From Magnetococcus sp. DMHC-6 (GTDB lineage: Bacteria; Pseudomonadota; Magnetococcia; Magnetococcales; JADFZT01), in the NCBI GenBank assembly GCA_039908535.1, contig JAMOAW010000027.1, positions 10,705 to 74,704 on the forward strand: DNA of 64,000 nucleotides. Reading direction: 5' to 3'. A program made the translations under genes and the position numbers. Under the pieces are notes generated by a model, which did not search any database, was not told the origin of the DNA, and was given only the letters and a program-made list of their open reading frames with translations. Positions 3,492 through 64,000 of the stretch are shown one piece after another (position 1 is the stretch's first letter; every line of letters begins with the position of its first letter).

Positions 3492-3615
3492 TTTGTTTTC
3501 TTGTCTGGTTAGGTTGTGTGAACGGATGCGGTGGGTGTAGATTGCTACCCTTATAGATTTTCTGCTATATGTTACGTTTTATAAATTCAGTTTGCAAGTT
3601 TGCAGGGGAGAATTT

Positions 3616-3886: not shown

Positions 3887-3928
3887 AAACAGAAGAATTG
3901 GGTTATTGTTGGGAGTGTGAGTTAAGCT

Positions 3929-5987: not shown

Positions 5988-6004
5988 CCTGTAGGGATAA
6001 AATA

Positions 6005-7033
6005 ATGGATCATCACATGCGCATTTCCAAACCCATTGCCGTTGTGACCGGTGGAGCTGGATTTATCGGCAGTCATATGAACGATTTATTGCTGGATGAG
6101 GGATATCGGGTTCGGGTTGTGGACAATCTCTCTGGAGGACATGTGGGCAATTTGGCTCATCATGCCAATAATCCCGATTTAACTTTGGAAGAGCGGGACA
6201 TTTGCACGGTTTCTCCGCAGGATGGGGTGTTTAAAGGGGCGCGACTGGTGATCCATTTCGCTGGGATTGGCGATATTATTCCTTCAATTGAAGCCCCACT
6301 GGATTATATGTCTACCAATGTGCAGGGGACAATACGGGTTTTGGAGGGGGCGCGTTGGGCTGGTGTCGATAAATTTGTCTATGCGGCCTCCTCTTCTTGT
6401 TATGGTTTGGCGACCACCCCCACCCGTGAGGATCATCCGGTTGCGCCGCAATATCCATATGCTTTGAGTAAAAATTTGGGTGAACAAGCGGTTTTTCATT
6501 GGCATCAGGTCTATCGTTTGCCTGTGAATTCGTTGCGTATTTTTAATGCTTATGGTACCCGAGTACGGACAACGGGTGCTTATGGGGCCGTGTTTGGGGT
6601 GTTTTTTAAACAAAAGTTGGCTGGATTGCCTTTTACAGTGGTTGGTGATGGTCTCCAGAGTCGGGATTTTATTTATGTAACGGATGTGGCGGCGGCTTTT
6701 TATGCAGCGGCCAAGAGTACCTATTCTGGAAAGATTTATAATCTTGGAGCGGGTGCCCCGCAGACCATTTTGCGTTTGGTGGAGCTGTTGGGTGGGGATT
6801 GGATCTCTATTCCCAAACGGCCTGGGGAACCAGATTGTACCTGGGCCGATATCGGTAAGATCACCCGTGAGCTGGGTTGGAGACCGCAGGTCGATTTTGC
6901 CGCTGGAGTGGCAAAAATGGTCGCTGAAATTGAAAATTGGCGGGATGCGCCGCTTTGGGATCCCGATTCCATTGCTATGGCGACTCAAACTTGGTTTAAA
7001 TATTTGCATAAAGATTCGAACATCGCCTCTTAA
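6005..7033 (+). CDS. NAD-dependent sugar epimerase/dehydratase (extended SDR)
   Basis: 342 aa. Rossmann motif VTGGAGFIGSH and catalytic YxxxK (YALSK). Confidence 0.85.
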   Translation: MDHHMRISKPIAVVTGGAGFIGSHMNDLLLDEGYRVRVVDNLSGGHVGNLAHHANNPDLTLEERDICTVSPQDGVFKGARLVIHFAGIGDIIPSIEAPLDYMSTNVQGTIRVLEGARWAGVDKFVYAASSSCYGLATTPTREDHPVAPQYPYALSKNLGEQAVFHWHQVYRLPVNSLRIFNAYGTRVRTTGAYGAVFGVFFKQKLAGLPFTVVGDGLQSRDFIYVTDVAAAFYAAAKSTYSGKIYNLGAGAPQTILRLVELLGGDWISIPKRPGEPDCTWADIGKITRELGWRPQVDFAAGVAKMVAEIENWRDAPLWDPDSIAMATQTWFKYLHKDSNIAS

Positions 7034-7040
7034 ATCAATA

Positions 7041-7292
7041 TCTGGGTGGGCGGAGAACCGCCCCCCAGACCCCCTCTTTTTTTTAAGTCTTAAAAAAAAG
7101 AGGGGGTCTGGGGGATTCATCCCCCAGGGTTTTGATTTTGTAACCGTTCAGATAAAAAAATCAAAAACAAGACCTTGGGGGATTGCATCCCCCAACCCCC
7201 CTGCTATTTGAAGAAAGCAAAACCGAATTCAAAAGCAAAGTCAAAAGCAAAGTCAAACCCCTGGGGGCAATCCCCCAGACCCCTTTTTTTTA
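7041..7292. repeat. Hairpin-repeat locus R4 (core A-B-C followed by an E-D-C' element)
   Basis: Core at 7041-7135. 7166-7285 (aagaccttgggggattgcatcccccaa ... ctgggggcaatcccccag) is the reverse complement of the C'-D-E stretch seen in R5, R6 and R9. Confidence 0.9.
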
Positions 7293-7315
7293 TTAATATA
7301 TGAACGTTGGTCTCC

Positions 7316-7348
7316 AAAAAGCCTGCCTTTTGTGCAGGCTTTTTTTTA
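7316..7348 (+). terminator. Rho-independent terminator (bidirectional shape)
   Basis: aaaaaGCCTGCcttttgtGCAGGCtttttttt. Lies downstream of repeat locus R4 and the epimerase gene. Confidence 0.7.
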
Positions 7349-7466
7349 TGGAAATATGGGCTGGCATCCATTTTTTCTCTCAAGTCGAGAAAAGAAAATC
7401 CGATAAAAAGAATAAGTGTATTTTTACCTATTTTCTCTAAAGGTCAAATGGCCTGTTTAAATTTAT

Positions 7467-7493
7467 TCAAGTCCAAGCCATCACAGCCGATAA
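7467..7493 (+). promoter_or_regulatory. Candidate sigma-28 (FliA) promoter upstream of the first flagellin
   Basis: TCAA-N15-GCCGATAA against the consensus TAAA-N15-GCCGATAA (-10 element 8/8, -35 element 3/4). It would give a ~230-nt leader. Confidence 0.4.
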
Positions 7494-7671
7494 ATAGAAT
7501 AGGGTAGATTTTATCTAAATCAAGGCAAGGAGAGCTATAAGAAGAGTCTCAGAGAAATAATTGTGAATGATATTGGTAAGTGCAGATGGTAAAGGCATGT
7601 TTTATTGTCCTTGTTATTTTAGCTAAAAAACGGGTTGGACTGGCCCTTTAAAATGAACAGTTCATCATGCC

Positions 7672-7723
7672 AAGGAAGGGTGTCTGAAAAAAAATTTTCA
7701 GACTAACTTTGATTTTTAGGAGG
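7672..7723 (+). promoter_or_regulatory. Flagellin 5' leader: GGA motif, hairpin, GGA-containing SD (CsrA-type two-site layout)
   Basis: AAGGAAGG at 7672-7679, hairpin gtctgaaaa/ttttcagac at 7682-7703, AGGAGG at 7718-7723, ATG at 7732. The block is conserved upstream of the paralog at 8635-8681. Confidence 0.4.
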
Positions 7724-7731
7724 AAAAACAG

Positions 7732-8577
7732 ATGTCTCTTACAATTAATAGCAATGTGGCAGCCTTGAGTGCGCAACGTCATATGAATAATACGACAAAT
7801 GCGCTGCAAAAAGTCTATACCCGTCTCTCTTCTGGGTTGCGCGTAAATAGCGCGGCGGATGATGCGGCTGGACTCTCTATCTCCAATCGTATGACGGCGC
7901 AAATTCGTGGTATGAATCAGGCCGTTCGCAATGCCAACGATGCCATCTCAATGGTTCAGGTGGCGGAAGGTGCTTTGGATGAAACGACCAATGCCTTGCA
8001 ACGTATTCGGGAACTGGCGGTCCAGGCCTCGAACGGGACGTTGACCAGTACAGATCGGTCGGATCTTCAGAAAGAGGTGGATCAGTTGATTGCAGAAGTG
8101 GATCGGATTGCAACGACCACTGAGTTTAACAATCAAGCCATGTTGCAAGGAAGTATGTCGGCGGGTAGAACTTTTCAGATTGGTAACGACGCCAATCAAA
8201 CGATTCGGGTCTCTATTGGGGCGGTCACATCGACGGCTTTGGGACTGGCGACGGTTTCTATGGGTGCGGGTGGTGCCAGTGCTGGGGTGGCGATTTCACT
8301 TGCCGGGGCCGCTATTACCGCTATGGATAGTGCTTTGGATTCGGTCTCGGCCATTCGTTCGACATTGGGTGCGTTTCAAAACCGTTTTGAGGCAACGATT
8401 TCTAGCCTTACCAATATTTCAGAAAACACCTCTGCGGCCCAATCGCGCATTATGGATGCAGATATTGCCGCAGAAACGGCCAATTTGACCCGTTATTCCA
8501 TTCTGCAACAGGCGGGCGTGGCGGTTATGGCTCAGGCCAATCAGCAACCTCAAATTGCGTTACGGTTGCTCAGTTAA
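7732..8577 (+). CDS. fliC: Flagellin (short, 281 aa)
   Basis: Conserved flagellin N-terminus ([24 protein letters not shown]) and C-terminus (NRFEATI...[32 protein letters not shown]). Confidence 0.95.
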
Positions 8578-8634
8578 TTGGTGGTGCTGGAGAATGGGTT
8601 GGGTCGACCATTTAAAATGAATGGCCTATAAATA

Positions 8635-8681
8635 CCAAGGAAGGTTGTCTGTTTGTTTGCAGACTCATTTTTTGATAGGAG
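8635..8681 (+). promoter_or_regulatory. Flagellin 5' leader (paralogous to 7672-7723)
   Basis: ccAAGGAAGG at 8635-8644, hairpin gtctg..cagac at 8647-8664, AGGAG at 8677-8681, ATG at 8691. Confidence 0.4.
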
Positions 8682-8690
8682 AAATACCTC

Positions 8691-18019: not shown

Positions 18020-18505
18020 ATGGAGATTCATGGGACGCGGTTTGGAACGTTGACGTACCAAAAAGAGGATATCATTCAGATGGAAGACGGATTGTTGGGG
18101 TTTCCGTTGAGCAAACGTTATTTGCTTTTTCCATATTCAGAAGAGTCTTCATTTTTTTGGCTTCAGTCTATTGATGAACCAGAAATTGCTTTTATTGTTG
18201 TCAATCCATTTGAGTTTTTCGCCGATTTAGAAATAGTCATAGAAGATCATGACGCGATCGCGATTGAACTGAAAAACCAGGAGGATGTGGAGTTGTTCAG
18301 CCTAGTGATCATCCCGGAGGGCAAACCGGAAGAGATGCGCACCAATTTGGCTGGCCCCGTGGTCGTGAATGCCACGAATCGCAAAGGACGGCAGATTTTA
18401 TTGAAGGATTATTCACCACGCCAACCGTTGATACCAGATAACATGCGGGAGAGTTATCGGAGGGAAAAACTGTTGGTCCCCAATCGTAGAATGGCTCAAA
18501 AGTAA
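18020..18505 (+). CDS. fliW: Flagellar assembly factor FliW (copy 2)
   Basis: MEIHGTRFGTLTYQKEDIIQMEDGLLGFP... is collinear with copy 1. The track ORF starts at a TTG at 17828, but its first 64 aa have no counterpart in copy 1. Confidence 0.85.
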   Translation: MEIHGTRFGTLTYQKEDIIQMEDGLLGFPLSKRYLLFPYSEESSFFWLQSIDEPEIAFIVVNPFEFFADLEIVIEDHDAIAIELKNQEDVELFSLVIIPEGKPEEMRTNLAGPVVVNATNRKGRQILLKDYSPRQPLIPDNMRESYRREKLLVPNRRMAQK

Positions 18506-18567
18506 ACATAAGAGTCAAACATGAAGTGGGAACATGCCCTTAGATGAAAGAAGGGTGTGAGGAAATT

Positions 18568-18595
18568 CAAAGGATTTTGTCACTAAATAAGAGGA
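18568..18595 (+). promoter_or_regulatory. Flagellin leader with two GGA motifs (CsrA-type)
   Basis: cAAAGGA at 18568-18574 and AAGAGGA at 18589-18595 (the SD). ATG at 18603. Confidence 0.4.
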
Positions 18596-18602
18596 TCGAA
18601 CC

Positions 18603-19433
18603 ATGCCGCTTTTTATTAATACCAATGTTGCTTCGTTAAATGCGCAGCGCAATTTGAACAAGTCAACCGGCGAACTGGGCAAAACTTTTGCTCGTTTGGC
18701 CTCTGGTCTTCGGATTAATTCGGCCAAAGACGACGCCGCTGGGATGGCCATTAGTACTCGTATGACTTCGCAGATTCGTGGATTGAGTCAGGCTTCTAGA
18801 AACGCCAATGATGGTATTTCCCTGATTCAGGTTGCGGACGGTGCTCTTGAAGAGACGACCAATGCCTTGCAAAGAATTCGTGAATTGGCGGTTCAGGCTG
18901 CGAATGGTACTTACAACTCTACCGACCGTGCCGATCTGCAAAAAGAGGTTGATCAACTTCTTTTTGAAGTGGATCGGATTTCCACAGACGTAGAGTTTAA
19001 CAACAAAAAATTGCTTTTGGGTACGAGTATTCGCAGTGTTGATTTTCAGATAGGCGATAAAGAAAATCAGACGATTGAAATCACGATCACCAGTTGTGAT
19101 ACGAGGGCTTTGCTTGGATTAACTAGCGCGAATGTGACTATTATCACAGCTTCTGATGCGGGGATGGCCTTGACGCAGTTGACTAAAGCTTTGGACAGTG
19201 TGACAACAATACGGGCCACCTTGGGTGCGGCGCAGAATCGTTTTGAAGCGGTGATCAATAATCTTTCGAACGTGGTGGAGAATATTTCAGCAGCTCGTTC
19301 GCGGATTGTGGATGCCGATATTGCCGCTGAAACGGCGACATTGACACGCAATGCCATTTTGCAACAGGCTGGAACAGCGGTTTTGGCTCAGGCCAATCAG
19401 CAGCCACAGTTGGCTTTGCAGTTGCTTGGCTAA
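18603..19433 (+). CDS. fliC: Flagellin (276 aa)
   Basis: Flagellin N- and C-terminal conserved blocks. Differs from the 281-aa pair in the central region. Confidence 0.95.
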   Translation: MPLFINTNVASLNAQRNLNKSTGELGKTFARLASGLRINSAKDDAAGMAISTRMTSQIRGLSQASRNANDGISLIQVADGALEETTNALQRIRELAVQAANGTYNSTDRADLQKEVDQLLFEVDRISTDVEFNNKKLLLGTSIRSVDFQIGDKENQTIEITITSCDTRALLGLTSANVTIITASDAGMALTQLTKALDSVTTIRATLGAAQNRFEAVINNLSNVVENISAARSRIVDADIAAETATLTRNAILQQAGTAVLAQANQQPQLALQLLG

Positions 19434-19754
19434 AAAAAAGCTTATTGAAAAGAGATAAACTGCCGATAAAACTTATAAGAAGTGTGCTTTGTGCCAAATA
19501 GATCAGAAAGTTGATCTTTTAATAGCGAATCTTCTTTAATTGGGGTGGGGTATGCAAGGCTTTGGAACTGGGATCCCTGTTTGGTTCAGGTGGACACTTC
19601 TGAGGAATTTGGTTTTATATTTGAGTTGACCGGGTTCCTCGGAGTGTGTTACCAATTTAATAAAGCCTGCAAAAGGGTGGTTTTATTCTTATCAATAGGT
19701 CACTTCATCTATTTTGATGGGTAAGAGCGACAGAATTGGACTAGGAGAAAACAG

Positions 19755-21227
19755 ATGCTCGGATCGGTAACTTTTGGTGGATTGGCCAGTGGTTTGCCCA
19801 CGGATCTTGTCGATCAGCTTATGTCTGCTCAGCAAACGCGCAAGAAAACGTTGGAGAGAGATCGGGATTATTTTACCAAGCAACTGAGTACTTATGATAC
19901 TTTGGTCTCTAAGCTAAAGAGCTTTCAATCCACCGTTGAGGATTTGCAGTCGGCTTCCAGTTTTTCGCCGCATACAGCCAGTAGTTCCGATACCACGCGT
20001 ATTTCGATCTCCTCTGATAGTACGGCGGTGGAGGGGAATCATTCGGTGGAGGTCCAGAGGTTGGCGACCAATGCGACCTTTGTTGCCGATACCGGGACCG
20101 CAGCTTTGACCGATACGTTGGGACAGGCGGGTGGTACGTTTGATTTTTCCTATATCGGATCAGGAGGTACTCCTGAAGCCATTTCAGTTGCTTTTAACAG
20201 TACGGACACGTTGTCTGATTTGGTGAGCAAGATCAATTCTGCCGCATTCACGAGTGGATCCGGGTTTTCAGCCGGGGTGATGTATGATGGCAGCCAATAT
20301 CGTTTGACACTGACGGCCAAGGATGCGGGAGCTGGGGTGCGGGCTGCGGATGGCACAACGACCACCTCGCGGATTAGTGCGGTGAGTTTTTCGGCTAATG
20401 ATGCCTTTGCCTCTATAACCCAAACCAGAGCTGGCGTGGATGCCCAGATGAAGGTAGATGGGGTATCTAACATCTACAGCAGCAGCAACTCGGTGAATAA
20501 TGTTTTGACAGGTGTCACCATGTCGTTAGGTCAGGTTAGTTCTGGCGTGGTTCCTGGCGGTGCGGGTGTCGGTGCGGCGACCGGTTCTGACAATCAATTA
20601 GGTGGTACTGGTACCGATATTATGATCAGTATCAGCAATGACAGCACCACCTTGAAGACGACTCTGGATAGTTTTGTCACCGCTTATAATGATGTGATCA
20701 ATTTTATTTCAGGTCAGAAGGAGCAATATTTTTCTGGGGAGTCACTGACCCGTTCTATCGTTTCTCAGATGCGGAGTGTGATCAACACCCCCACGGGGGA
20801 TGGATCGGGAGGGACGTTAACTCCTTATTCGACTTTGGCGGAGATAGGATTGCGAACGGATCAAAAGTTGGGGACCATTAGTTTTGATTCGACTAAATTA
20901 GATGCCGCGATCAGTAGTAATTTTAAGGCGATCTCCTCTATATTCACCACCACCGATGCCACTGGTAACGATGGCGTTGCCCATCGCATGGCCGATCTTT
21001 TATCCGGGATTACCGACAGCACCGATGGTTCAGTGACAGCGCGCCAAGATGGTTTGCAAAATCGTATTGACAGTCAGCAGGAGCGTATTGATAAGGAGAC
21101 CATTCGTTTGGATGCAGAAAAGGAACGTTTGACCCTTAAATTTGCCACCCTGGAACGATTAATTACGCAAATGAAGGGTTCTTCAGGCTCTTTGGAATCT
21201 ACGCTGTCGAGTTTGAATAGTAAGTGA
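19755..21227 (+). CDS. fliD: Flagellar filament cap protein
   Basis: 490 aa. N-terminus SVTFGGLASGLPTDLVDQLMSAQ and a C-terminal coiled coil (RIDKETIRLDAEKERLTLKFATLERLITQM). Confidence 0.9.
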   Translation: MLGSVTFGGLASGLPTDLVDQLMSAQQTRKKTLERDRDYFTKQLSTYDTLVSKLKSFQSTVEDLQSASSFSPHTASSSDTTRISISSDSTAVEGNHSVEVQRLATNATFVADTGTAALTDTLGQAGGTFDFSYIGSGGTPEAISVAFNSTDTLSDLVSKINSAAFTSGSGFSAGVMYDGSQYRLTLTAKDAGAGVRAADGTTTTSRISAVSFSANDAFASITQTRAGVDAQMKVDGVSNIYSSSNSVNNVLTGVTMSLGQVSSGVVPGGAGVGAATGSDNQLGGTGTDIMISISNDSTTLKTTLDSFVTAYNDVINFISGQKEQYFSGESLTRSIVSQMRSVINTPTGDGSGGTLTPYSTLAEIGLRTDQKLGTISFDSTKLDAAISSNFKAISSIFTTTDATGNDGVAHRMADLLSGITDSTDGSVTARQDGLQNRIDSQQERIDKETIRLDAEKERLTLKFATLERLITQMKGSSGSLESTLSSLNSK

Positions 21228-47148: not shown

Positions 47149-47673
47149 ATGGCTTTACATGTGAGTAGATCAAAAAACAGAGTTGTTGAGAACACCAATT
47201 TGGCTAGGATTATTCGGGCTGTTTTGGTCTTTACTGTTTTGTTGTTGGTTGTTGGTGCCAATCTACCCAAAGAGATTGCCGTGCAAGTGGGGGTAGAGAG
47301 CAATTTTTTATTGGCGGCGTTGGCGGCCATTGTTGCGGTTTGGACTGTGCAGCATATTCATATGTTGTTGGTATCGCTAGTGATTTTTTTATCACTTGTG
47401 GCCAATTTTTCCAATTTTACCAATGCCCCCATTCCAGTAAATCACAGTATGGCCGTTTTGGCCCTGATTGTTTTGGTGGGTGTTTGGATGGCAAAAAATG
47501 TTAGTAAAATTATTGCACTTCTTTTTCTTACCCTGGGCATCGGTCTTCTGTTGCCGCCAGAATACACCACGGTTCTGCACCTTGATTTTGGAATTTTACT
47601 CCCTCTCTTCATTGCCTTGTTGGCCACCCCTATTTTAATATTTCTTTTCAGTAGACGTCAGCGTCTTTCTTGA
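47149..47673 (+). CDS. Integral membrane protein, unknown function
   Basis: 174 aa with about five hydrophobic segments. No motif recognised. Confidence 0.45.
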   Translation: MALHVSRSKNRVVENTNLARIIRAVLVFTVLLLVVGANLPKEIAVQVGVESNFLLAALAAIVAVWTVQHIHMLLVSLVIFLSLVANFSNFTNAPIPVNHSMAVLALIVLVGVWMAKNVSKIIALLFLTLGIGLLLPPEYTTVLHLDFGILLPLFIALLATPILIFLFSRRQRLS

Positions 47674-54428: not shown

Positions 54429-55055
54429 TCAGAACAATTTAAACATTTTGCCAAGCATACCTGTAATCGATATGGCCGAAAACAGAATGGCAAAAGTAAA
54501 AAGTCGAATGGTGAGCATGCGATTTTCCCGCAAACCGGCATCAATTTTAACATCAATGCGTTCCAATAATTTGTCCAATTTGTTACCAACTTCTTTAATT
54601 TCAACATGCATTTCTTCGAAGCGTTTGTCCACCTGTTCGAAGCGTTTGTCCACCTGTTCGAAGCGTTTGTCCACCTGTTCGAATCGTGTATTTATATCGA
54701 GACGGTTTTTATTAAAATTTTCTTTTGTATCTGTCCTCAAATCATCAATACGTTTATCGATCTGTTCGAAGCGATTATCTACCTGTTCAAACCGTGTGTT
54801 TATATCGAGACGGCTTTTATTAAAGTTTTCTTTTGTATCTGTTCTCAGTCCATCAATATGTTTATCTAATTGTTCAAATTGATATTTTGTATCTTTTTTG
54901 AACTCGTTAAGTTCGGTACGGACATGAAGGATATCATGTTGCAGGTGGTCGAAGCGAACTTCGAGATATTTGGTTGTTGGAACAAAATTAGCGAGCAACA
55001 TATCGATTGTTTTTTTGTCTAAAGGCAAGCTAATTGGATTTTCCTGTTCAGTCAT
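54429..55055 (-). CDS. Heptad tandem-repeat (DKRFEQV) coiled-coil protein with C-terminal membrane anchor
   Basis: 208 aa. RFEQVDKRFEQVDKRFEQVDKRFEEM and a duplicated ~39-aa unit. C-terminal TM LTIRLFTFAILFSAISITGMLG. Paralogous in architecture to 26518-27113. Confidence 0.7.
   Translation of the reverse strand: MTEQENPISLPLDKKTIDMLLANFVPTTKYLEVRFDHLQHDILHVRTELNEFKKDTKYQFEQLDKHIDGLRTDTKENFNKSRLDINTRFEQVDNRFEQIDKRIDDLRTDTKENFNKNRLDINTRFEQVDKRFEQVDKRFEQVDKRFEEMHVEIKEVGNKLDKLLERIDVKIDAGLRENRMLTIRLFTFAILFSAISITGMLGKMFKLF
54615..54677 (-). repeat. Three exact 21-nt tandem units (ttcgaagcgtttgtccacctg on the + strand)
   Basis: Read directly from the sequence. Encodes (QVDKRFE)x3. Confidence 0.95.
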
Positions 55056-55146: not shown

Positions 55147-58100
55147 TTAGAGGTTCCCTTGGATCATCTTGAGCAATTCCGTGGCTGAGAGCTTACCGCT
55201 TATTTCTCCCCCTTCAAGCAATCCGTCGGCTAAGTCGCGTTTATGTTTGTGGAGATCGACGATTTTTTCTTCGATGGAGTTTTTGGTGACCAATCGATAA
55301 ATGGTGACCGGGCGTTGTTGACCGATGCGGTGGGCGCGGTCCGAGGCTTGGTCTTCCACGGCTGGGTTCCACCATGGATCCATATGAATGACATAATCGG
55401 CGGCGGTCAGATTGATTCCCAATCCACCCGCCTTTAGACTGATTAAAAAGAGATCGCCTTCCCCAGATTGAAAGGCCTCTACCCGTTTTTTGCGCTCTTT
55501 AGCGGGGGTGGAGCCGTCTAAAAATTGATAGAACACCTTTTTTTGATCGAGAAGTTGGCGGACGATGGTTAGATGATCGACAAATTGGCTAAATACCAAT
55601 ACCTTATGGCGGTTTTCCAATAAATTTTCTACCACCTCCCAGAAAAGCAATAATTTACTGCTTATAATGGGACTGTCTGGCAAGACCAGACGACTGTTGC
55701 AGCAGGCCCGTCGCAACCGCATGATTTGCGCCAAAATTTGCAAATGGTTGTGTGCCATTGGTCCTTGAAAATTTTCGATCTCCTCAATAGCCTGTCTACG
55801 AATAGATTCGTAAAAGGCGGTCTCTTCTGGGCTCATCTCCACCTGCAAGGTGATTTCGGTGCGTGGGGGTAGTTCGTCCAGAACTTGGCTTTTGGTACGG
55901 CGTAATATAAAGGGTTGGATCAATTTTTTTAAGCGATGCCGGGCTTCGGAATGGGGGTCACGTTCAATGGAAGCGGCAAAACGTTCGTTAAACCGTTCCA
56001 GAGTGCCCAGTAGTCCTGGATTGATAAATTGAAATAAATTCCAAAATTCCCCAAGATGATTTTCAATAGGGGTCCCTGTGGTGACCATTTTAAAGGCTGC
56101 TTTGAGATTCATGACCGCTTTGGAGCGTTTGGTCAGACGGTTTTTGATGGCCTGCGCTTCGTCCACCACCAACACGTTCCAGTTTATTGTAGCGAAAAGA
56201 TCGGCCTCTTGTTGTAGTAAACCATAACTGCAAATCATGAGGTCAAAGGGGCGCAGCTCTTGTAATATTTGCGTCCGTTGGGTGCCACCAAATAGAATTC
56301 CGTTGAGGGTAGGGGCAAAGCGGAGGATTTCGGTTTGCCAGTTCATGCAGACCGAGGTGGGGGCGATTACCAAGGAGGGGCCTTGTTGGGCTCTTGAGAG
56401 GAGTAATGCCATGGTCTGTACGGTTTTTCCCAATCCCATGTCGTCGGCCAAACAGGCCCCAACCCCCCAGGCGGCCAAACGGGAGAGCCAACGATAGCCT
56501 ACCTGTTGATAATCCCGCAGTTCGGTTTGTAAGGTGGAGGGCAGCGGTGGATCCAGGGTTTGGGCTTGATCCACCCGTTTGAGATGGGCTTTCCAATGGT
56601 TGTCGGACCTGAAGGCTCCTGCCTCTTGGCTCAATTCGCGGAGAAGGGGGCCAGCCAGGGGGTGAAAACGTTGACCTTGCGCACTTTTTTCTGAAAAAGC
56701 CTCCATATCCAGTAACCGCTTGCGAAAGGCCTCGGTCAGGGTGATAAATTCATGGTTGCCAATGGGGATAAAGCGGCTCTCTTTTTTGTGTAGGAGTTCT
56801 AGGAGTTCTCCCATTTCTAAAATGAGCGTTTCATCAATGTGTAATTGGCCAGTGAGGGCAAACCAATTTTGGTCACGTTTGACCTGAATGCGCAGTTTAT
56901 CCATGGTGATTGGAGGACGCACGCGCATTTTTTCTCCTTCGGGCCACTCCACCACCACCTGATCATTGAGCGTTTGCAGTTGTAAGAGCAACTCTAAACA
57001 ATGGTCGGGGTCGTCCAATTGCCACTGCCCGGGTTCTCTCTCGCTGCCGACCAATTGGGGGCAGAGGGTGAGTAACTGTTGCAAGCGTTTTTTTTCTTCA
57101 TCCAACTGGCGATGGGTTTGTACCCGTTGCCCTTTGATTTCGGCCAGAATAGTCTGTCCCCCCTGCCCAGGAAGAAAGGTGGGGCCTTCATCGGTAAAAG
57201 GGCGTACTAAAAGGTTTATTTTTAAACCATCCCCAAGGGGAGAGAGGGAAAGATGGGGTCTGGAATCGGCAGGAACTTCAGTTAAATTTTCAACACCGCC
57301 TCCAATATGGGATTGCACAGTGACCAACGATGCCAGAGAGTGCATGGCCTCTAAGACCCGTTGTTGCTCCTGGGCGGGAATTTCGAGTCCCTTTTCCCCT
57401 AAAATATCGGCAATGCGTTTGTGGGCTGGGGTAATTTCGATCACTTTGCAGCGGGTTGGGGAGACCTTGCGAAAAATTACGCCAAGATGTTCAATTTTTT
57501 CCGAGAAATTCATCAGGACCACCCCTTTGGACCGATTGACTAACAATTCTGGTTCGGCCTGAACCACCTCTAAATTGAGTTCAGGCTGATCTTCCCAAAA
57601 GAGCATTGGATGGCCGACCAAGGCCAAGAGCAAACGATCCTTAGAAAATGAATAAAAGGTGCCGCCAAAAGCTGGGGTCTCTTGAACAATGGTGGCGCAA
57701 ATTTTGCGATCATGATCGCTTAAAAAATCCAAATGTTGGGTCTCCTCGTACAACCTGTTTAAGGCGACTGGGCGACCCTTGGTCCATCCTTTGCCATGGG
57801 TATTGGTCTGCAAGAGGGGTTGTATGCTGACTTGATGACCGAGAAGTTGCAGCATCCAAATCAATCGGGTTTGGGTGGCACTGGTGGGTTGATGAGAAGA
57901 TTTTCCACTGCCATCGCCCCCTATGGAGATCAAGGCCTTTAAGGCCCGTTCCCAGCGTTCCTCTTTGGCGACAATGGTCATCATGCTTTGTAGACCGGTG
58001 TTGGCCTGTACGGTAGCGGCGAATTCGGCAGCGGCACTGTTTTTCGGTTGGAGCAGGGCCAACAAAGAGGCCGCCTCCATGGCTGCCCATTGGTAGCCAT

Positions 58101-59385
58101 TTTTTTTGGCCTGATTAAAAATAACTTCCAACTCATAAGGTTTGGCGCGGGCATATTCTTGATCGATCCAAATGCGGGCCATAACTTGAAAGAGTTTGGT
58201 AAAAAGGGTCTCATTCTTTGAAGTTAAACGTTTTAAATCGCCATTATTCAAAGAGACGGCATCCATCAACAGCCCCGTTTCCAGAAGAATAATGGCTTTT
58301 CTGGTTTCATTGTTTTGCGCCAGGAATACCGCATCCATAAAACGCAGACTGGGAATGGTGTTTTGCAGTTTGAGATCGCGAATTAAAATTAAAAATTCTT
58401 CTAAACGATGATATTGTCCGGGATCACCGGTTTTGAGTAACGCCAATAAAAAAAAGAGTCCACCTAAGTCAGGGAAAAAAATTTTACGTTTACGAGTAGA
58501 TCTCTTGAGTTCCAAAAAGGCCGTTTCAAATGCTTCCAAAGCCATATCGTTTTTGCCAAGCAGGAAATAGATCCAACCTTGCAAAGAGGAGTGATGCATA
58601 ATAGACAATTCGCCATCTAAAATTTTTTGAGCCAGCGCGATTTGTCCTTGAAAAATGAGGGTCATGACTAATAGATAACGAAATCGTCCGGCAATAATGC
58701 TGTCAGAACATTGTTTATGATAGAGATGTAGGAGAGGCAGCAGAGACGTGACGTTTTCAAATTGACTTAAAAGATAAGGGACCATCTCTTCCAGAACCAT
58801 TGCCTGGATGGTCAAAGGTAACGTCTGAAACCAATTTATATCGAAGGGATATCCACACGCAGTGGTCAAGAGTGGATTGAGTTTGGTCTCTTTTGGAAAT
58901 TGATTTTGGCATAAGGTGATATAAAATTCCATCTGTTTGAGGTTATGGTCAAACAGGGCCAAGCGAATTTCTCGGATGCCACGGGTAAAACTGTGTAATT
59001 TTTTGGCTTGGGTATAATAAACGCGTATGGCGGGTAACTCTGTCTGGATCACCCTGGCCAACTCCTGAAACCGTCCCTCTTGGATAGCCAGATGGGTGGC
59101 AAAGGTCAAGAGTGGTGTTGCACAGCGAAATTGATTCAAAGAGGCATCCTCTTGTTCTAGTAAGCCCAAACGGTACAATTTGGCCAGAATGGTTTTTAAT
59201 TCATTATTGGTCAGAGGTAAATTTTTCTCCCCGCGAATGGGTGTGGCCTGAAGAATTCGGGTCAGATTGGTGGCATGGATTGATTCCATCAAAATGGCCA
59301 GAAATTGGATGACTTCTCGTTCGATTTGGGTTGTTTTATTAAAGTGTTCCAACCAAGAGGGGGTGTTAAGGTCTAAAGAAGTCAT
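55147..59385 (-). CDS. SNF2-family helicase (about 1412 aa) with a ~900-aa uncharacterised N-terminal region
   Basis: Motif I LADDMGLGKT, motif II DEAQAIKN, motif VI DPWWNPAVEDQASDRAHRIGQ. ATG at 59385; the track start at 59409 is a TTG. Confidence 0.85.
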   Translation of the reverse strand: MTSLDLNTPSWLEHFNKTTQIEREVIQFLAILMESIHATNLTRILQATPIRGEKNLPLTNNELKTILAKLYRLGLLEQEDASLNQFRCATPLLTFATHLAIQEGRFQELARVIQTELPAIRVYYTQAKKLHSFTRGIREIRLALFDHNLKQMEFYITLCQNQFPKETKLNPLLTTACGYPFDINWFQTLPLTIQAMVLEEMVPYLLSQFENVTSLLPLLHLYHKQCSDSIIAGRFRYLLVMTLIFQGQIALAQKILDGELSIMHHSSLQGWIYFLLGKNDMALEAFETAFLELKRSTRKRKIFFPDLGGLFFLLALLKTGDPGQYHRLEEFLILIRDLKLQNTIPSLRFMDAVFLAQNNETRKAIILLETGLLMDAVSLNNGDLKRLTSKNETLFTKLFQVMARIWIDQEYARAKPYELEVIFNQAKKNGYQWAAMEAASLLALLQPKNSAAAEFAATVQANTGLQSMMTIVAKEERWERALKALISIGGDGSGKSSHQPTSATQTRLIWMLQLLGHQVSIQPLLQTNTHGKGWTKGRPVALNRLYEETQHLDFLSDHDRKICATIVQETPAFGGTFYSFSKDRLLLALVGHPMLFWEDQPELNLEVVQAEPELLVNRSKGVVLMNFSEKIEHLGVIFRKVSPTRCKVIEITPAHKRIADILGEKGLEIPAQEQQRVLEAMHSLASLVTVQSHIGGGVENLTEVPADSRPHLSLSPLGDGLKINLLVRPFTDEGPTFLPGQGGQTILAEIKGQRVQTHRQLDEEKKRLQQLLTLCPQLVGSEREPGQWQLDDPDHCLELLLQLQTLNDQVVVEWPEGEKMRVRPPITMDKLRIQVKRDQNWFALTGQLHIDETLILEMGELLELLHKKESRFIPIGNHEFITLTEAFRKRLLDMEAFSEKSAQGQRFHPLAGPLLRELSQEAGAFRSDNHWKAHLKRVDQAQTLDPPLPSTLQTELRDYQQVGYRWLSRLAAWGVGACLADDMGLGKTVQTMALLLSRAQQGPSLVIAPTSVCMNWQTEILRFAPTLNGILFGGTQRTQILQELRPFDLMICSYGLLQQEADLFATINWNVLVVDEAQAIKNRLTKRSKAVMNLKAAFKMVTTGTPIENHLGEFWNLFQFINPGLLGTLERFNERFAASIERDPHSEARHRLKKLIQPFILRRTKSQVLDELPPRTEITLQVEMSPEETAFYESIRRQAIEEIENFQGPMAHNHLQILAQIMRLRRACCNSRLVLPDSPIISSKLLLFWEVVENLLENRHKVLVFSQFVDHLTIVRQLLDQKKVFYQFLDGSTPAKERKKRVEAFQSGEGDLFLISLKAGGLGINLTAADYVIHMDPWWNPAVEDQASDRAHRIGQQRPVTIYRLVTKNSIEEKIVDLHKHKRDLADGLLEGGEISGKLSATELLKMIQGNL

Positions 59386-59466
59386 CGTTTTTTTCCAGTG
59401 GATCACCAAAGGTTCTGGTTGAGGTTTAATGAAGGGGAGATGGGTGATTCTACATAGGTGCCAAAT

Positions 59467-59497
59467 GGATAATTGCGATACCTTTTCGCTATTATCC
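59467..59497. promoter_or_regulatory. 12-bp-arm inverted repeat (possible operator) upstream of the SNF2 gene
   Basis: GGATAATTGCGA-taccttt-TCGCTATTATCC, with one mismatch between the arms. Confidence 0.25.
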
Positions 59498-59735
59498 CTC
59501 AGAATAAGTTTTTAACGAAGTATTTTTATCGCACAAGGATTAAAAGAGCCAGAATATTTTAGTTTTAGTGGCTTTTTGTGAAAAATTTTAGATTTAGATA
59601 GGCTGAACTGGAAACGGGTAAAAATTTTTAGTATTGATGGAATGAGAAAATGTTTTTTTATTTGTAATTATTTGTTTTTATTTATAAAAAATTTTTTTTA
59701 TGTATGGATCTTCTTGTTTTTGAGTGAAAATTAAA

Positions 59736-59764
59736 TTGACAAAAAGCTTTTTTTAGTGTAAAAA
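59736..59764 (+). promoter_or_regulatory. Near-consensus sigma-70 promoter facing the giant lipoprotein gene
   Basis: TTGACA-17 nt-TAAAAT in a very AT-rich intergenic region. Confidence 0.45.
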
Positions 59765-60031
59765 TCAAAATTAGAATTTGTGGTGCAATTGAGAATAGAA
59801 ACTATATTTTTTTAAAATTTTACGATCTGCTTGTTTTTTTTTATATATTCCATAAAAATTTTTTTCTTTTTTATTAAGGGTGTCTTTTGGATGCCGAATT
59901 TTTTCTTTTATGTTTGTTTGACGAGTTGTTTTGCCGATAAAGTTTCCTGCCTTCCATCCGATTTTCCCAAATCCAGCGACGAATACCGTGCTATCAGATC
60001 ATTTTCAACCCGAGGGGTATAAGGTTAAGCT

Positions 60032-63000
60032 ATGAACCAATTTCACACGTCTTTACACAGTGTTGCTGACAAAACTTCAGGTGATTTTGGGGTTGAGTTC
60101 AGCCCTGTTTTGATTTCTGGACACGCCTTGCACGCGGTTCGATCGATTGAAGGGGAAATTTCTGCCAAACCAGGTGTGTATGAAATTGAATTACCTACGG
60201 AACGGAGCGAATTCATTAAATTTGTCACCGAGTGGGAGAGCAAGCACCGTTTGGCCGCGCTTAAAGGGGCGGCCTTTTCTGTATTGGTATTACCTTTAGC
60301 GGCAACTTTGGCTGGTTGCGGCGGCGGTGGCGGCGGTGGTGGTGGTACTTCTACTGAGTTGGGTTGGGTGGTGGACGGACCGATTAAAGATGCCACGGTC
60401 TGGCGTGATAGCGATGGGGACGGCGTGCAGGATTCTGGCGAAAAATGGACCACGAGCAATGCCGATGGCAGTTTTGATACCGCTGCTGTTACTGGTGCAG
60501 GGGTGCTGCGCTCTAAGGGTGGGACAGATGTCGTTACGGGTCAAAGTTTTGCCGACATTGTTTTATCCGCGCCCGATGGATCTACCACAATTAGCCCTGT
60601 TACCACTTTAATTCAGGAGTATGCCCTGGCCAATGGGGTGGATGCAACAACGGCGCAGGCTTCGGTAAAAACACTTCTTGGCATTTCAACCACCACTGAT
60701 CTTTTGTCCTATAATCCTACCGATAATACCGCTTTAGGCAATCAAGTGATTGCTGAAGCGCAAAAGATCATCGCGGCGACTCGGACGTTAAACAGTTTTG
60801 GTGTCAATATTCAGACGGCCTTTTCGAGTGTGATCACTCAACTATCTACGGCAACCGATGCGACGCAGGCCGATTTTTCGAATGCTCTCACTATTCAAAC
60901 CATGCTGGCAAACAATGGGATTACCACCCCTGATGCCGTGACTCTTGCGCAAACAATCGCGACATCCATCCAAAAAATTGCCACGGCAGTGGTGCAAAAT
61001 GGTTATAATTCTACGGCGGCAAAGGATACTGTTACGGAAGCCGTATCTGTGTCTAATACCGCTGCGGGTGTGTTGGTGACGGCCGCTGATTTGGCTGCTG
61101 GAACCTACAGTCAAGTCACAGGCAGTGTGAATGTCACGGTGACAGCTCCAGCTACGGTTGCGCAATTGGCCGCCATTGATGCCAAGACTACCGGGTCGCT
61201 CTCTTACGCTTCCATCGTTGATACGGCGGCCCATTTGGTTGGCAACAGTTATGTCACTGGAAATGTCAATGTGACGGTGACGGATACCACTACGGTTTCT
61301 GTGATCTCCACGATTGATGCACAGACGGCGGGTAAGTTGACCTATAATCTCTCCGATACCGCTGCAAATTTGGCGGGGGCTTCGGCGGCGATTGGCAATG
61401 GGGCAGGGAGCATGACGGCCACAACGACGGCCAACGCTGCCCAAGCTAAGGTGATAGAAGCTTTTACCAATAGCGGCTTAACCACCTATGATGTTTCCGA
61501 TACGGCCACGGCATTGGCTGCCAGTACTGGTTTAAATAGTGCGGTGAAAATTACCGCAACCACCTTGGCCACAGGAGCCGAGGCGACTGTTTTGGCCAAT
61601 TTTGCCAAAGCGGTGGTGTATAGTATTTCGGATACTGCCACCAATGTCGCGAACAGCAGCGGTTTGAATAAAGCGGTTCATATTACGGCGACCACAGCGG
61701 CGTCTGTGCAACAAGCGACGGCAATCGTGAATGCCGCCAATAGCGGGACCAAAACGTATGATTTAAGCGACACAGCGGAGAATTTGGCTGGTGCGGTTTT
61801 GGCGGTAGGAAATGGAGCCGGGACCATTTCGGCGACGACGACAGCGACGGTTTTGCAAGCGACGGCGATTGAAGCGTTTACCAACAGTGGTTTAACCATC
61901 TATAATATTATTGATACAGCTGAGAGTTTGGCGACCTCTTCGAATGCGGTTTTGACTTTGGCGGGGACGGTTACCGCAAGTACGGTCGCCACGGCTGCGC
62001 AAGCCAGTATTTTGGCTGGATTTACCAAGGAAGTGGTGTACAATATTTCTGATACGGCCACGGCATTGGCTGCCAGTACGGGTTTAGACGAAGCGGTGAA
62101 CATTACTGCAACCACAGCGGCTACGGTCGCGGAAGCCAACGTTATTGTTTTGGCTAACAATACGGGAACCAATATTTACAATTTGAGCGATACCGCATCG
62201 AATTTGGCGGCCGCCAGTTCAGCGGTTGGCAATGGGGCTGGGACCATTACCGCGACGACTTCGGTGACGGTTGCCCAAGCGGCGGCGATTGAGGCGTTTA
62301 GTAACAGCGGAGTCAATGCCTACGCCATTGCTGACACAGCGAGCCATTTGGCGGCTGCGACCAATGCGGTTTTGTCTTTGGGGTCCACGGTCACGGCGAC
62401 TGATTTGGCCACTGGAGCTGAGGCCACTATTTTGGCGAGTTTTGCCAAGCCTGTCGTCTATAGTGTTTCAGATACGGTCACCAATTTACTGGCCAGCAGC
62501 GGTTTGAATGAGGCGGTCAATGTGACGGCGACTACGCCGGTAACGTTGCAACAAGCGGCAGCACTTGAGGCGTTTAGTAACAGCGGAATCAATACGTATG
62601 CTATTGCTGATACAGTGAGTCATTTGATAGCTTCGACCGATGCGATTTTGTCTTTGGGGAGCACGGTTACGGCGACCGATTTGGCCACTGGAGCCGAGGC
62701 CACCCTTTTGGCGAGTTTTGTCAAGCCGGTGGTGTATAGTGTTTCGGACAGTGCCGCCAATTTAGCGGCCAGCAGTGGTTTGAACGAGGCGGTCCATATT
62801 ACGGCGACCACTGCGGCGACCGTGCAACAAGCGACGACGATTGTCAATGCCACCAATAGCGGGAGCAATACCTATCATTTAAGCGATACAGCGGAAAATT
62901 TAGCTGGGGCATCTTTAGCGGTAGGGAATGGTGCGGGGAGTATTACGGCCACAACGACGGCCAATGTTGCCCAGGCCACAGCCATAGATGCTTTTACCAA

Positions 63001-64000
63001 CAGCGGAACCAATACCTATTATATTATTGATACAGCAGACAAATTGGTACTCACAACTAATGCAATTTTAGACCAGGCGGTTACCGTCACGGTCAGTGGA
63101 CCGCCGGCAACGGCGGCTCAAGCCTCTATTTTGGCTGCTTTTACCAAACCGGTGGTTTTTACTGTTTCCGATACTATTGCCAACATGGAGACAAGTACTG
63201 GTTTGGGTGAAGCGGTTTCGGTCACCGTTGTGGACAGTGCGAATCATATCACGGCGGCTGATTTTATGGCCGGCAATTTGGCCTTGGTGACTCTGTTGAC
63301 GGTAAGTGATAACGCGGATGTCACCCTATCCGTAGACGAATTAAATCGACTCACGGTGACCACCACAGGCACCATTCATTTAGCGGATACGGCAGCCAAA
63401 ATCAATGCGGTGGATTTGACCACATTAAAATTTGCCCAGGTGACCACCTTGGAGGCCACAGATGGGGGAACTATTGTTTTAACTGTCGACGAGATGAATC
63501 GTTTTGCCGTCCTGGACACGGTATCTGATACAGCGGCAAACATTAATGCGACCGATTTTACCACGGGCCACATGGCCAACGTGACCTCTTTGACGGTGAG
63601 TGATGGTGGTGACATTATTTTGAGCATTGCCGAATTGAGCCGTTTGACCATCACCACCACTGGTGTGGTTATTGTGTCGGATACGGCAGAAAATATTAAT
63701 GCGGCTGATTTTACCTCTGGAAATTTGGCTCAGGCCGTTGTGTTGGATGTGAGTGATGGAGGTGCTATTCATATAAGTATCTCTGAATTGACGCATTTCG
63801 CCTATGATCTAATAAATGGTTATAGTACGTTGGATGTCGTAGATACTCCGACCAACTTGTTGGCAGAAAAGACAAATATTGAAAATTTGTATGTAGATGG
63901 ACGTGTGAGTTCATTGACTGCAACTGTTTTTGCAACAGCAACAGAAGCGGATACTTTGGCCGATTTTAGTGTTCCTGTGCAATATAGTATTTCGGATACT
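60032..64000 (+). CDS. Giant repetitive surface lipoprotein / adhesin-like protein (5' partial, continues past the window end)
   Basis: I translated the frame from the ATG at 60032 and found no stop through 64000. The ORF track omits it, probably because it has no stop. Internal lipoprotein signal MAALKGAAFSVLVLPLAATLAGC if started at the TTG at 60251. Ca-binding-like DSDGDGVQD. More than 20 modules carrying the [YF]x[IVL]SDTAxNL motif. Confidence 0.8.
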   Translation, partial: MNQFHTSLHSVADKTSGDFGVEFSPVLISGHALHAVRSIEGEISAKPGVYEIELPTERSEFIKFVTEWESKHRLAALKGAAFSVLVLPLAATLAGCGGGGGGGGGTSTELGWVVDGPIKDATVWRDSDGDGVQDSGEKWTTSNADGSFDTAAVTGAGVLRSKGGTDVVTGQSFADIVLSAPDGSTTISPVTTLIQEYALANGVDATTAQASVKTLLGISTTTDLLSYNPTDNTALGNQVIAEAQKIIAATRTLNSFGVNIQTAFSSVITQLSTATDATQADFSNALTIQTMLANNGITTPDAVTLAQTIATSIQKIATAVVQNGYNSTAAKDTVTEAVSVSNTAAGVLVTAADLAAGTYSQVTGSVNVTVTAPATVAQLAAIDAKTTGSLSYASIVDTAAHLVGNSYVTGNVNVTVTDTTTVSVISTIDAQTAGKLTYNLSDTAANLAGASAAIGNGAGSMTATTTANAAQAKVIEAFTNSGLTTYDVSDTATALAASTGLNSAVKITATTLATGAEATVLANFAKAVVYSISDTATNVANSSGLNKAVHITATTAASVQQATAIVNAANSGTKTYDLSDTAENLAGAVLAVGNGAGTISATTTATVLQATAIEAFTNSGLTIYNIIDTAESLATSSNAVLTLAGTVTASTVATAAQASILAGFTKEVVYNISDTATALAASTGLDEAVNITATTAATVAEANVIVLANNTGTNIYNLSDTASNLAAASSAVGNGAGTITATTSVTVAQAAAIEAFSNSGVNAYAIADTASHLAAATNAVLSLGSTVTATDLATGAEATILASFAKPVVYSVSDTVTNLLASSGLNEAVNVTATTPVTLQQAAALEAFSNSGINTYAIADTVSHLIASTDAILSLGSTVTATDLATGAEATLLASFVKPVVYSVSDSAANLAASSGLNEAVHITATTAATVQQATTIVNATNSGSNTYHLSDTAENLAGASLAVGNGAGSITATTTANVAQATAIDAFTNSGTNTYYIIDTADKLVLTTNAILDQAVTVTVSGPPATAAQASILAAFTKPVVFTVSDTIANMETSTGLGEAVSVTVVDSANHITAADFMAGNLALVTLLTVSDNADVTLSVDELNRLTVTTTGTIHLADTAAKINAVDLTTLKFAQVTTLEATDGGTIVLTVDEMNRFAVLDTVSDTAANINATDFTTGHMANVTSLTVSDGGDIILSIAELSRLTITTTGVVIVSDTAENINAADFTSGNLAQAVVLDVSDGGAIHISISELTHFAYDLINGYSTLDVVDTPTNLLAEKTNIENLYVDGRVSSLTATVFATATEADTLADFSVPVQYSISDT
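61200..63240 (+). repeat. Type-I protein modules (44-48 aa; xYx[IL]SDTAxNLA...ITATT...QA..I.AF.NSG), including a 276-nt tandem duplication (62291-62566 and 62567-62842)
   Basis: Read from the translation. Boundaries are approximate. Confidence 0.8.
63240..63800 (+). repeat. Type-II protein modules (47-51 aa; INAxDFTxGxxAxVTxLTVSDGGxIxLSIxELxRL...SDTAxN)
   Basis: Read from the translation, about four copies. Boundaries are approximate. Confidence 0.75.

Follow-up and report, generated by a model that had tools for sequence, protein, structure and literature searches.

This study concerns a very large gene that enters the end of a 64,000-nucleotide stretch of DNA (the window; forward strand of contig JAMOAW010000027.1) from Magnetococcus sp. 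DMHC-6, an uncultured freshwater magnetotactic coccus known from a metagenome-assembled genome (MAG) that was built from Illumina MiSeq reads (PMC9840458). We observed that the + strand frame at 60032-64000 comprises 1323 codons with 0 stops and stays open through the window edge; the five alternative frames of the same interval contain 74, 75, 31, 32 and 87 stops. This bears out a preliminary description of the DNA, made from its letters alone, which had traced the frame from 60032 past the window end, and no stop had been overlooked in it. It had also been rightly remarked that the gene is absent from the list of open reading frames (ORFs), where minus-strand shadow ORFs stand instead, and it is missing there because its frame passes the end of the source. 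The + frame is coding rather than open by chance, since its homologues reach a best E of 2e-101 in the protein search and AlphaFold2 models its modules with a predicted local distance difference test score (pLDDT) of 96. The shadow ORFs were considered as genes and rejected, as the homology and structure signal lies entirely in the + frame; their translations are Arg/Ser/Gly-rich nonsense. The giant gene is real, yet it stands outside the public protein set, and the 42-mer at 63852-63893 had no exact match in the genome or metagenome contig collections. The beginning of the gene carries the following features.

59736-59765 and 59789-59818, + strand: two sigma-70-like promoter matches, 10/12 positions each, which are consensus matches only
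60021-60024, + strand: Shine-Dalgarno-like AAGG in the sequence, with a 7-nt spacer to the ATG
60032-60034, + strand: start codon ATG; in the alignment Met1-Asn2 stand opposite the very beginning of the relatives P0027 and P0002

Judged from the sequence, the start codon looks genuine. The spacer of ~620 bp at 59410-60031, which separates the giant gene from a divergent SNF2 gene, has 30% GC against 47% for the window and may be a regulatory region; six sigma-70-like sites were found upstream, against 2.3 expected from shuffles. AT-rich tandem repeats with a period of 10/20 occupy 59647-59705 within this spacer. Over residues 1-1323 the protein consists of Ala (17.4%), Thr (15.9%), Val (9.6%), Ser (9.1%), Leu (8.0%), Gly (7.0%) and Asn (6.0%). 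The composition had earlier been summarized as Ala, Thr, Val, Ser and Asn with no Cys, and the last part has to be amended: a single Cys is present among the 1323 residues, and it is the lipobox Cys96.

The N-terminus and its lipobox

The first 341 residues are non-repetitive and can be divided as follows.

60032-60247, + strand, aa 1-72: conserved pre-signal extension, ending in the helix SEFIKFVTEWESKH with the motif (F/L)(V/I/L)xx(W/F)xxK
60248-60319, + strand, aa 73-96: signal-peptide-like segment with basic H72, R73 and K79 and the hydrophobic region (h-region) AAFSVLVLPLAAT
60317-60319, + strand: codon of Cys96 in the lipobox L-A-G-C, from the translation and a nine-sequence alignment
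60320-60346, + strand: polyglycine linker G97-G105, nine Gly, seen in the translation and as GGC repeats by Tandem Repeats Finder (TRF)
60365-60592, + strand, aa 112-187: small beta-rich domain, with the motif VVDGPIxDATVW and ending with ISPVTTLI, pLDDT 76-89
60407-60442, + strand, aa 126-137: Ca-loop-type motif DxDxDGxxDxxE, reading D126-S-D-G-D-G-V-Q-D-S-G-E137
60593-61054, + strand, aa 188-341: helical bundle region in the AlphaFold2 model, pLDDT mostly 76-89

Nine independent N-termini were aligned (the window protein, P0027, P0002, L085, P0020, P0133, P0126, P0135 and L097). In the window protein the N-terminus is made up of four parts, namely the conserved extension of ~72 aa, an h-region of the signal type, the lipobox Cys and the polyglycine linker. 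Residues L89, A90, A91, C96, G97 and G98 are invariant in all nine, G97-G100 are kept across the five-sequence alignment, and the lipobox reads exactly LAAC-GG in eight of the nine. The window protein fits the lipobox pattern [LVI][ASTVI][GAS]C preceded by a basic n-region and an uncharged h-region, as K79-GAAFSVLVLPLAAT-L-A-G-C96. Taken with the h-region, the invariance of LAAC-GG points to recognition by enzymes (Lgt/LspA) rather than to a generic membrane helix. In two relatives that are plain lipoproteins, P0028 and P0029, LAAC-polyG is an ordinary signal at residues ~19-24 (M...LLAAC-GGGG), and these two, together with several metagenomic genes (L086-L091), hold the shared Cys, the linker and the downstream domain at true N-termini. 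Since plain lipoproteins carry the domain directly after a LAAC-GGGG signal, the lipobox of the lipoprotein proposed earlier is supported; a standard N-terminal signal for signal peptidase II is not, as such signals place the Cys near the extreme N-terminus (within about the first 15-40 residues) and Cys96 lies behind the conserved ~72-aa extension.

In P0027, P0002 and L085 the extension itself is kept at the protein level from Met1, and its motif is (I/V)ELPxxxxxF(I/L)xFVxxWxxK. The three closest sequences agree throughout in S16, P25, G30, L33, V36, R37, E53, L54, P55, F64, W68 and K71. AlphaFold2 gave it a pLDDT of 24-48 and one helix at residues 58-78, with low confidence.

The beta-rich domain carries the conserved motifs VVDGPIxxATV and ISPxTTL, and its invariant residues across homologues are D115, G116, A121, D126, D134, E137, S188, P189 and T192. 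The DSDGDGVQD segment, which had been described as Ca-binding-like, fits the 12-residue loop motif with D126, D134 and E137 invariant, and that description is supported in that the segment is a conserved motif of the Ca-loop type. The helices predicted in the following bundle span residues 189-201, 205-216, 233-255, 260-273, 285-294, 302-323 and 328-341. The N-terminal AlphaFold2 model (mean pLDDT 65.5) had no fold match in the PDB, the best E being 0.2. Other relatives present the VVDGY form of the Ca-loop domain behind different leaders: in P0088 and P0161 it follows a long low-complexity region, a hydrophobic segment and a Gly/Ser linker without Cys, and in P0034, P0098 and P0112 it follows an N-terminal region with a DUF4214-type motif (found by regular expression). 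P0009, P0016 and P0019 have an N-terminal region with PF13946. This hints that the anchoring module of the family could be interchangeable.

Repeat modules and their fold

Beyond the N-terminal region the protein is a train of modules, arranged as listed below.

61205-63217, + strand, aa 392-1062: type-1 module array, fourteen modules of 44-48 aa plus a half unit
62291-62566 and 62567-62842, + strand: 276-nt tandem duplication, two modules copied once
63218-63826, + strand, aa 1063-1265: type-2 module block, four units of 47-54 aa by alignment
63827-64000, + strand, aa 1266-1323: type-1-like unit, cut by the window end at ...PVQYSISDT in the translation

Type-1 modules were delimited by the anchor [ILVA]xD[TS]x, which recurs every 44-48 aa at residues 395, 440, 488, 532, 578, 626, 672, 718, 766, 812, 858, 904, 950, 998 and 1045; type-2 anchors follow at residues 1066/1117, 1164 and 1215 with a spacing of 47-51 aa, and a type-1-like unit is found again at 1269. 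Anchor spacing and alignments therefore agree with the preliminary description in the module train, the change to a second module type and the return of the first near the window edge. The two types do not really alternate as had been put forward, type 2 being one block of four units. The type-1 consensus is xYxISDTAxNLAASSxAxxNxAVxITATTxATVAQATxIxAFTNSGxx and that of type 2 is xVTVSDTAANINAADFTTGNLAQVTxLTVSDGGDIxLSVDELNRLTVTTTG. Type 2 was considered as a diverged type 1 and rejected: in hhalign the two share the first 15 columns only, that is the SDTAxN(L/I) start, with a probability of 10.9%. A type-2 hidden Markov model matched one of the 165 family members, and the type-1 model matched 141 of the 165, so that the type-2 module is almost private to the window protein.

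A higher order, missed in the earlier account, was also detected. Three type-1 sub-types follow one another in a cycle, giving a super-period of 420 nt (140 aa) whose copies are 64-80% identical at the DNA level. The 276-nt duplication is confirmed, and its identity, earlier given as ~85%, is slightly lower: direct comparison gave 226/276 nt (81.9%) and 71/93 aa (76%), and TRF reported 276 nt x 2.0 at 62276-62833 with 82% matches. The codons that differ between the two copies include 19 synonymous and 22 non-synonymous changes. A copy of the DNA repeat family D4, 60% identical to its reference, is situated at 63932-63999. Because the MAG rests on Illumina MiSeq reads, the number of repeats is to be treated with care.

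An AlphaFold2 model of residues 437-720, for which internal repeats and segments of homologues were aligned in 18 rows, reached a mean pLDDT of 96.1 and a predicted template modelling score of 0.86, with a regular strand-helix-strand-helix pattern in which every ~23 aa supply one short strand and one helix. The repeat length of 44-48 aa stands as described, and the module is better seen not as a domain but as two predicted turns of a ~23-aa strand-helix solenoid. The model thus shows the bulk of the protein as a putative rod or sheet of ~23-aa strand-helix coils, similar to the alpha/beta solenoid of leucine-rich repeat (LRR) proteins; the coils are shown to be grouped as 46-aa modules and then as 140-aa super-modules. 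Foldseek against the PDB placed LRR proteins on top, namely RipG4, LegL1, NOD2, COI1, TIR1 and Skp2, with probabilities of 0.93 for the GALA-LRR RipG4 (9j7j) and 0.90 for LegL1 (4xa9). Like LRR proteins, the window modules would stack a short beta-strand and a helix per ~23-aa coil into a solenoid; unlike them, the coils alternate in pairs, with the (S/T)DTAxNL signature on every second coil. No Pfam LRR family matched the window protein at E <= 0.1, and LxxLxLxxN/C is absent from the module consensus. Because the fold scores are weak and the LRR sequence motif is absent, we call the fold LRR-like and do not assign the protein to the LRR family.

Searches of Pfam, NCBIfam and PDB sequences with the whole window protein returned sub-threshold noise only, and so did the same searches with the N-terminal extension, the Ca domain, the helical region and the type-2 block; these sub-threshold matches include FlgD_tudor, SdrD_B (E 0.057, a weak match of the beta domain) and LPAM_MltD (E 0.72). 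Rfam had nothing in the window. That the module could not be assigned to a named repeat family is accordingly confirmed, and the relatives P0001-P0003 likewise have no Pfam, NCBIfam or PDB sequence match. A profile of the module searched against 1.84 billion cluster representatives retrieved 718 at E <= 1e-3, of which 204 also pass E <= 1e-30, the longest protein of the module family having 6205 aa. The evidence for a small, uncurated solenoid repeat family is solid. This family is the lower-risk finding of our study, and the lipidated cargo of type I secretion discussed below is the higher-risk, higher-value idea. The confident LRR-like model offers a handle for annotating proteins that are labelled "beta strand repeat-containing" or "hypothetical".

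Secretion genes of relatives and the proposed export route

The gene context was surveyed in nine relatives with readable flanks. Genes of type I secretion systems (T1SS), that is TolC/outer membrane efflux protein (OEP), LssB/LapB-type ATP-binding cassette transporter (ABC) and HlyD/AprE-type membrane fusion protein (MFP), adjoin six of the nine, an association that the preliminary description did not foresee. The loci are arranged as follows.

P0002 (L081), N-terminus as in the window: OmpA-like, gene, TolC, LssB-type ABC (TIGR01844, 240 > 225 bits; TIGR03375, 704 > 693 bits)
L085, N-terminus as in the window: ABC, HlyD, gene (TIGR01843, 367 > 209 bits)
P0011 (L093/L094), lipobox LTGC: gene, OEP, LssB ABC (845 bits), AprE-type MFP
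P0001 (L095), best overall match: gene, OEP, ABC, MFP
P0010 (L098), from Magnetococcales, the taxonomic order to which the window belongs: gene, OEP, ABC
P0014 (L097), N-terminus ...LVGTWDKKSLQAARAGGVSTLALALAACGG...: LssB ABC pieces, lgt, an unassigned gene, OEP, gene
P0020 (L092), N-terminus as in the window, 13 RTX-type motifs and PF00353: no T1SS gene within 10 kb
P0003 (L082), from Vogesella fluminis, modules 48-64% identical to those of the window: no T1SS gene within 10 kb
P0009 (L096), DUF4214 N-terminus: no T1SS gene in range

Of the five module proteins that have both a lipobox and a readable context, four stand next to T1SS genes; no T1SS gene adjoins the single plain-lipoprotein control whose flanks could be read. 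The best match of the ABC was always TIGR03375, above the cutoff in L081 and L093. A double-glycine leader cut by the C39 peptidase of such an ABC was rejected, as the N-domains of the ABCs in L081 and L093 are without the catalytic Cys of C39 peptidases. Many relatives end in repeats-in-toxin (RTX) sequences and T1SS-like C-termini, PF00353 being present in 11 of the 26 first matches and tandem RTX motifs (regular expression) in 33 of the 165 relatives; in P0002, P0020, P0011, P0133 and P0126 the lipobox occurs together with RTX motifs or a T1SS-like C-terminus. With T1SS genes next to six of the nine relatives and RTX repeats in many of them, the likeliest export route is type I secretion. 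In L097 an lgt gene (2151-2981; TIGR00544, 222 bits against a cutoff of 119) is placed between the divergent LssB-type ABC and the OEP, upstream of a family member whose N-terminus has both the extension and LAAC-GG. This adhesin gene is split into four called genes at 6155-14065, probably owing to frameshifts. The L082 locus is an island rich in genes for integrases, transposases and toxin-antitoxin systems, and the repeats of its P0003 are the most similar to those of the window among the full-length matches of the first search.

With reference to these observations, our best explanation, to which we give roughly 55%, is that the window closes (60032-64000) with the first 1323 residues of a large surface repeat protein, whose N-terminus bears a lipobox and which is exported by an LssB/LapB-class T1SS. 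The protein very probably forms a surface fibre or sheet, as an adhesin or a surface-layer (S-layer) type protein, in line with what the preliminary description had suggested, and its function is likely to be adhesion or surface-layer formation. By analogy with the relatives, we infer export through a TolC-like protein, an ABC and an HlyD protein and a C-terminal RTX/T1SS signal beyond the window, and the secretion genes would probably lie just downstream in the order gene, OEP, ABC, MFP, as in the Magnetococcales relative. Under this explanation, the hydrophobic N-terminal segment would be held in the envelope and the remainder would thread out C-terminus first; Cys96 would be lipidated by Lgt, after which signal peptidase II would remove the extension, and the adhesin would be tethered to its cell by the acyl-Cys with the polyglycine. 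What keeps known giant type I-secreted adhesins on the cell is a folded N-terminal retention module with a LapG/LapD release switch. The lipid tether would take the place that the folded retention module has in LapA, where polyglycine follows as well.

A number of points weigh against this explanation. The C-terminus and the genes past 64000 lie outside the window, residues 1-1323 contain no RTX motif, the C-terminus being beyond them, and no T1SS, LapD or LapG gene is present in the 60 kb upstream of the giant gene. Three of the nine relatives (P0020, P0003 and P0009) have no T1SS gene within reach. The link with lgt was found in one locus only, L097, and could be a housekeeping copy standing there by chance. 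A Sec-type signal is topologically hard to reconcile with C-terminus-first type I export from the cytoplasm, and we found no precedent for a Sec-type signal combined with type I secretion. The window lipobox (60296-60319) reads LAATLAGC, a 4-residue insertion with respect to the LAAC of the other eight sequences that looks like a partial duplication of the lipobox. The extension and h-region were modelled at pLDDT < 50, the module model rests on 18 rows that include internal repeats, and its Foldseek scores are weak (E >= 5e-3, template modelling scores of 0.2-0.3, none below E 1e-3). Finally, no identical or near-identical entry for the giant protein occurs among 5.8 billion public proteins.

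We tentatively consider a wider idea as well, for which the odds are rather unfavourable: an undescribed class of type I-secreted giant adhesins that are held by a lipid and not by a folded plug, with the conserved leader and LAAC-GG processed by Lgt/LspA and an LRR-like extender replacing the Ig-like repeats. In such a class, processing would take place during or after C-terminus-first export by the LssB-class T1SS, some loci would bring a dedicated Lgt, and the acyl-Cys-polyglycine tether would pass through the TolC-like pore or alongside it. Should lipidation of the Cys be real, one polypeptide would undergo both lipoprotein processing of the Sec type and one-step type I secretion. T1SS-class genes are repeatedly paired in these loci with cargo whose N-terminus resembles a lipoprotein signal behind a conserved leader of its own, and a major unannotated surface component of the magnetotactic cocci is flagged. 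The freshwater coccus FCR-1 can by now be cultivated (PMC11950176). In our literature searches, T1SS or RTX adhesins that bear a lipobox were not described, and neither was an N-terminal anchor of the lipoprotein type paired with genes for type I secretion.

The lipobox might also suit an ordinary lipoprotein of the Sec/Lgt/LspA/Lol pathway with its lipid anchor in the outer membrane, the neighbouring T1SS genes of relatives serving other substrates. The canonical motif with a basic n-region and an uncharged h-region of 14 residues, the true N-termini of P0028, P0029 and L086-L091 and the 60 kb upstream without T1SS genes all favour it, but we regard it as unlikely, as Cys96 stands behind a conserved, translated extension, T1SS genes abut four of the five lipobox-bearing module proteins and not the plain-lipoprotein control, and five relatives pair the lipobox with RTX motifs or T1SS-like C-termini. 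We know of no route by which Lol alone could move a lipoprotein of >1300 aa, possibly >5000 aa, across the outer membrane. The h-region might instead be an uncleaved signal anchor, a permanent inner-membrane helix with the 72-aa extension in the cytoplasm and the Cys not lipidated, and the protein would extend to the outside either directly from that membrane or by way of the T1SS channel. Its chance seems similarly small: P0088 and P0161, in which the hydrophobic segment and Gly/Ser linker precede the VVDGY domain without a Cys, and the conservation of the extension, as expected of a functional cytoplasmic piece, speak in its favour, against which stand the LAAC-GG common to nine proteins, the lgt of one locus and an h-region whose ~14-17 residues are few for a stable transmembrane helix.

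A LapA-type retention module, in which the extension would be a periplasmic plug cut at Ala-Ala by a LapG-like protease without any lipid, is improbable to a greater degree. Residues ~90-105 do repeat the order of N-domain, Ala-Ala and polyglycine seen in LapA M1-S125 with its TAAG and poly-G, and modules of the LapA kind share little identity and are served by LssB/LapB-class ABCs (10.1101/198937). Nevertheless, the site reads LAAC (LAAT in the window) where TAAG and AAAG have been published (10.1101/198937), the NCBIfam scan of the whole protein gave two irrelevant weak matches and no retention-type family, AlphaFold2 did not fold the extension, and no LapG or LapD gene was seen in the loci examined. 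The LapA retention module, moreover, is not known to have a hydrophobic h-region or a Cys, which further counts against this possibility. Lastly, a decaying or mis-assembled gene, that is a pseudogene or a collapsed repeat assembly not expressed as read, has very little to recommend it. The Tex protein of the same contig (49836-52253) is present in the public set at 100% identity and the giant protein is not, so the public record seems either to lack an annotation of the gene or to mark it as a pseudogene; the MAG derives from MiSeq reads, and relatives are often fragmented by frameshifts, for instance L097 and L094. On the other side are 1323 stop-free codons where the other frames have 31-87 stops, and conserved N-terminal residues that are all intact, and repeat collapse is less likely because the copies are 64-82% identical and not near-identical.

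Among known systems, the closest kind by mode of working is the RTX/LapA-type adhesin. Adhesins of the LapA/MpIBP/FrhA type are, like the window family, very large, repetitive, Ca-dependent surface proteins, and they are exported by a TolC-like protein, an ABC of the LapB/LssB class and HlyD, the same classes of genes that adjoin the relatives, once together with an OmpA-like gene. These adhesins leave by type I secretion in two steps and stay lodged in their TolC-like pore. The N-terminal ~100 residues of the window protein end in polyglycine, and many relatives have a C-terminal RTX region. In LapA the retention module M1-S125 has its polyglycine linker just past the LapG dialanine site (10.1101/198937), and the ABCs of the LapB/LssB group that export retention-module adhesins have no catalytic Cys (Smith et al., 10.1101/198937). 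The window N-terminus differs in having an h-region and an invariant lipobox Cys where LapA has a folded plug with a TAAG site. The extenders of RTX adhesins are tandem Ig-like beta-sandwich domains (PMC7493085), with Ca2+ in the linkers; the window protein has a predicted strand-helix solenoid (pLDDT 96) and no Big/Ig match in Pfam.

With classical lipoproteins the window protein shares the basic n-region, the uncharged h-region, L-A-[GA]-C and a Gly-rich tether after the Cys. The family nevertheless departs from them in that the signal lies behind a conserved extension of 35-100 aa, which puts the Cys at residue 56-120, and in that its proteins are huge, with RTX/T1SS-like C-termini, and are encoded in T1SS operons. 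The position of the signal, away from the N-terminus, sets the window protein apart from textbook lipoproteins. To our knowledge, Aat is the only described TolC/adaptor/ABC machine that delivers an acylated protein to the cell surface. In that system, whose substrates are CexE/Aap, surface delivery also comes with a dedicated acyltransferase gene in the locus and a Gly next to the acylation site (PMC7943197). The Aat substrates are ~10 kDa proteins with a signal peptidase I signal, their Gly is acylated by an Lnt homologue, and the ABC is LolCDE-like (PMC7943197); the window family has an ABC of the LssB/T1SS class, a lipobox Cys as predicted acceptor, Lgt in one locus and cargo of >1300 aa. 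An Aat-like system was therefore rejected, given the class of the ABCs and a locus enzyme that is Lgt and not an Lnt homologue. The S-layer protein RsaA of Caulobacter, which is type I-secreted, is rich in Ala, Thr, Val, Ser and Gly, (nearly) Cys-free and not known to have a lipobox. The likeness of the window protein to it lies in the composition and the near absence of Cys, and would extend to export by a T1SS with a C-terminal RTX region.

Other genes of the window

The remaining window is chromosomal, with genes for flagellins, FlgK, FliW, FliD, glycosylation, a methyl-accepting chemotaxis protein and hybrid histidine kinases, and further with flagellar rod and ring genes, a Sel1 protein, Tex, a topoisomerase and the SNF2 helicase. 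Secretion genes are absent from this part upstream of the giant gene. The next best relative of Tex is 66% identical and belongs to Magnetococcales. A dense flagellar filament cluster occupies 7732-21227, with four flagellin genes of ~280 aa (at 7732, 8691 and 18603, and a FlgL-like one at 12990), an unusually long flagellin of 833 aa at 15126-17627, two FliW genes, FlgK and FliD; sugar-modification genes are found just upstream of it at 69-7033.

The SNF2-family helicase (1420 aa, 55147-59409, - strand) has no significant Pfam domain in its first ~950 residues. Its relatives, 41-52% identical over the full length and up to 57% in part, occur in MAGs of Magnetococcales, cyanobacteria, Desulfobacterota and Nitrospirota, and this scattered distribution suggests horizontal spread; there was no usable synteny around these relatives (<= 52% identity). 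A predicted coiled-coil protein of 208 aa at 54429-55055 (- strand) gave weak, sub-threshold matches to many coiled-coil families, and an ORF of 174 aa at 47149-47673 (+ strand) gave no Pfam match.

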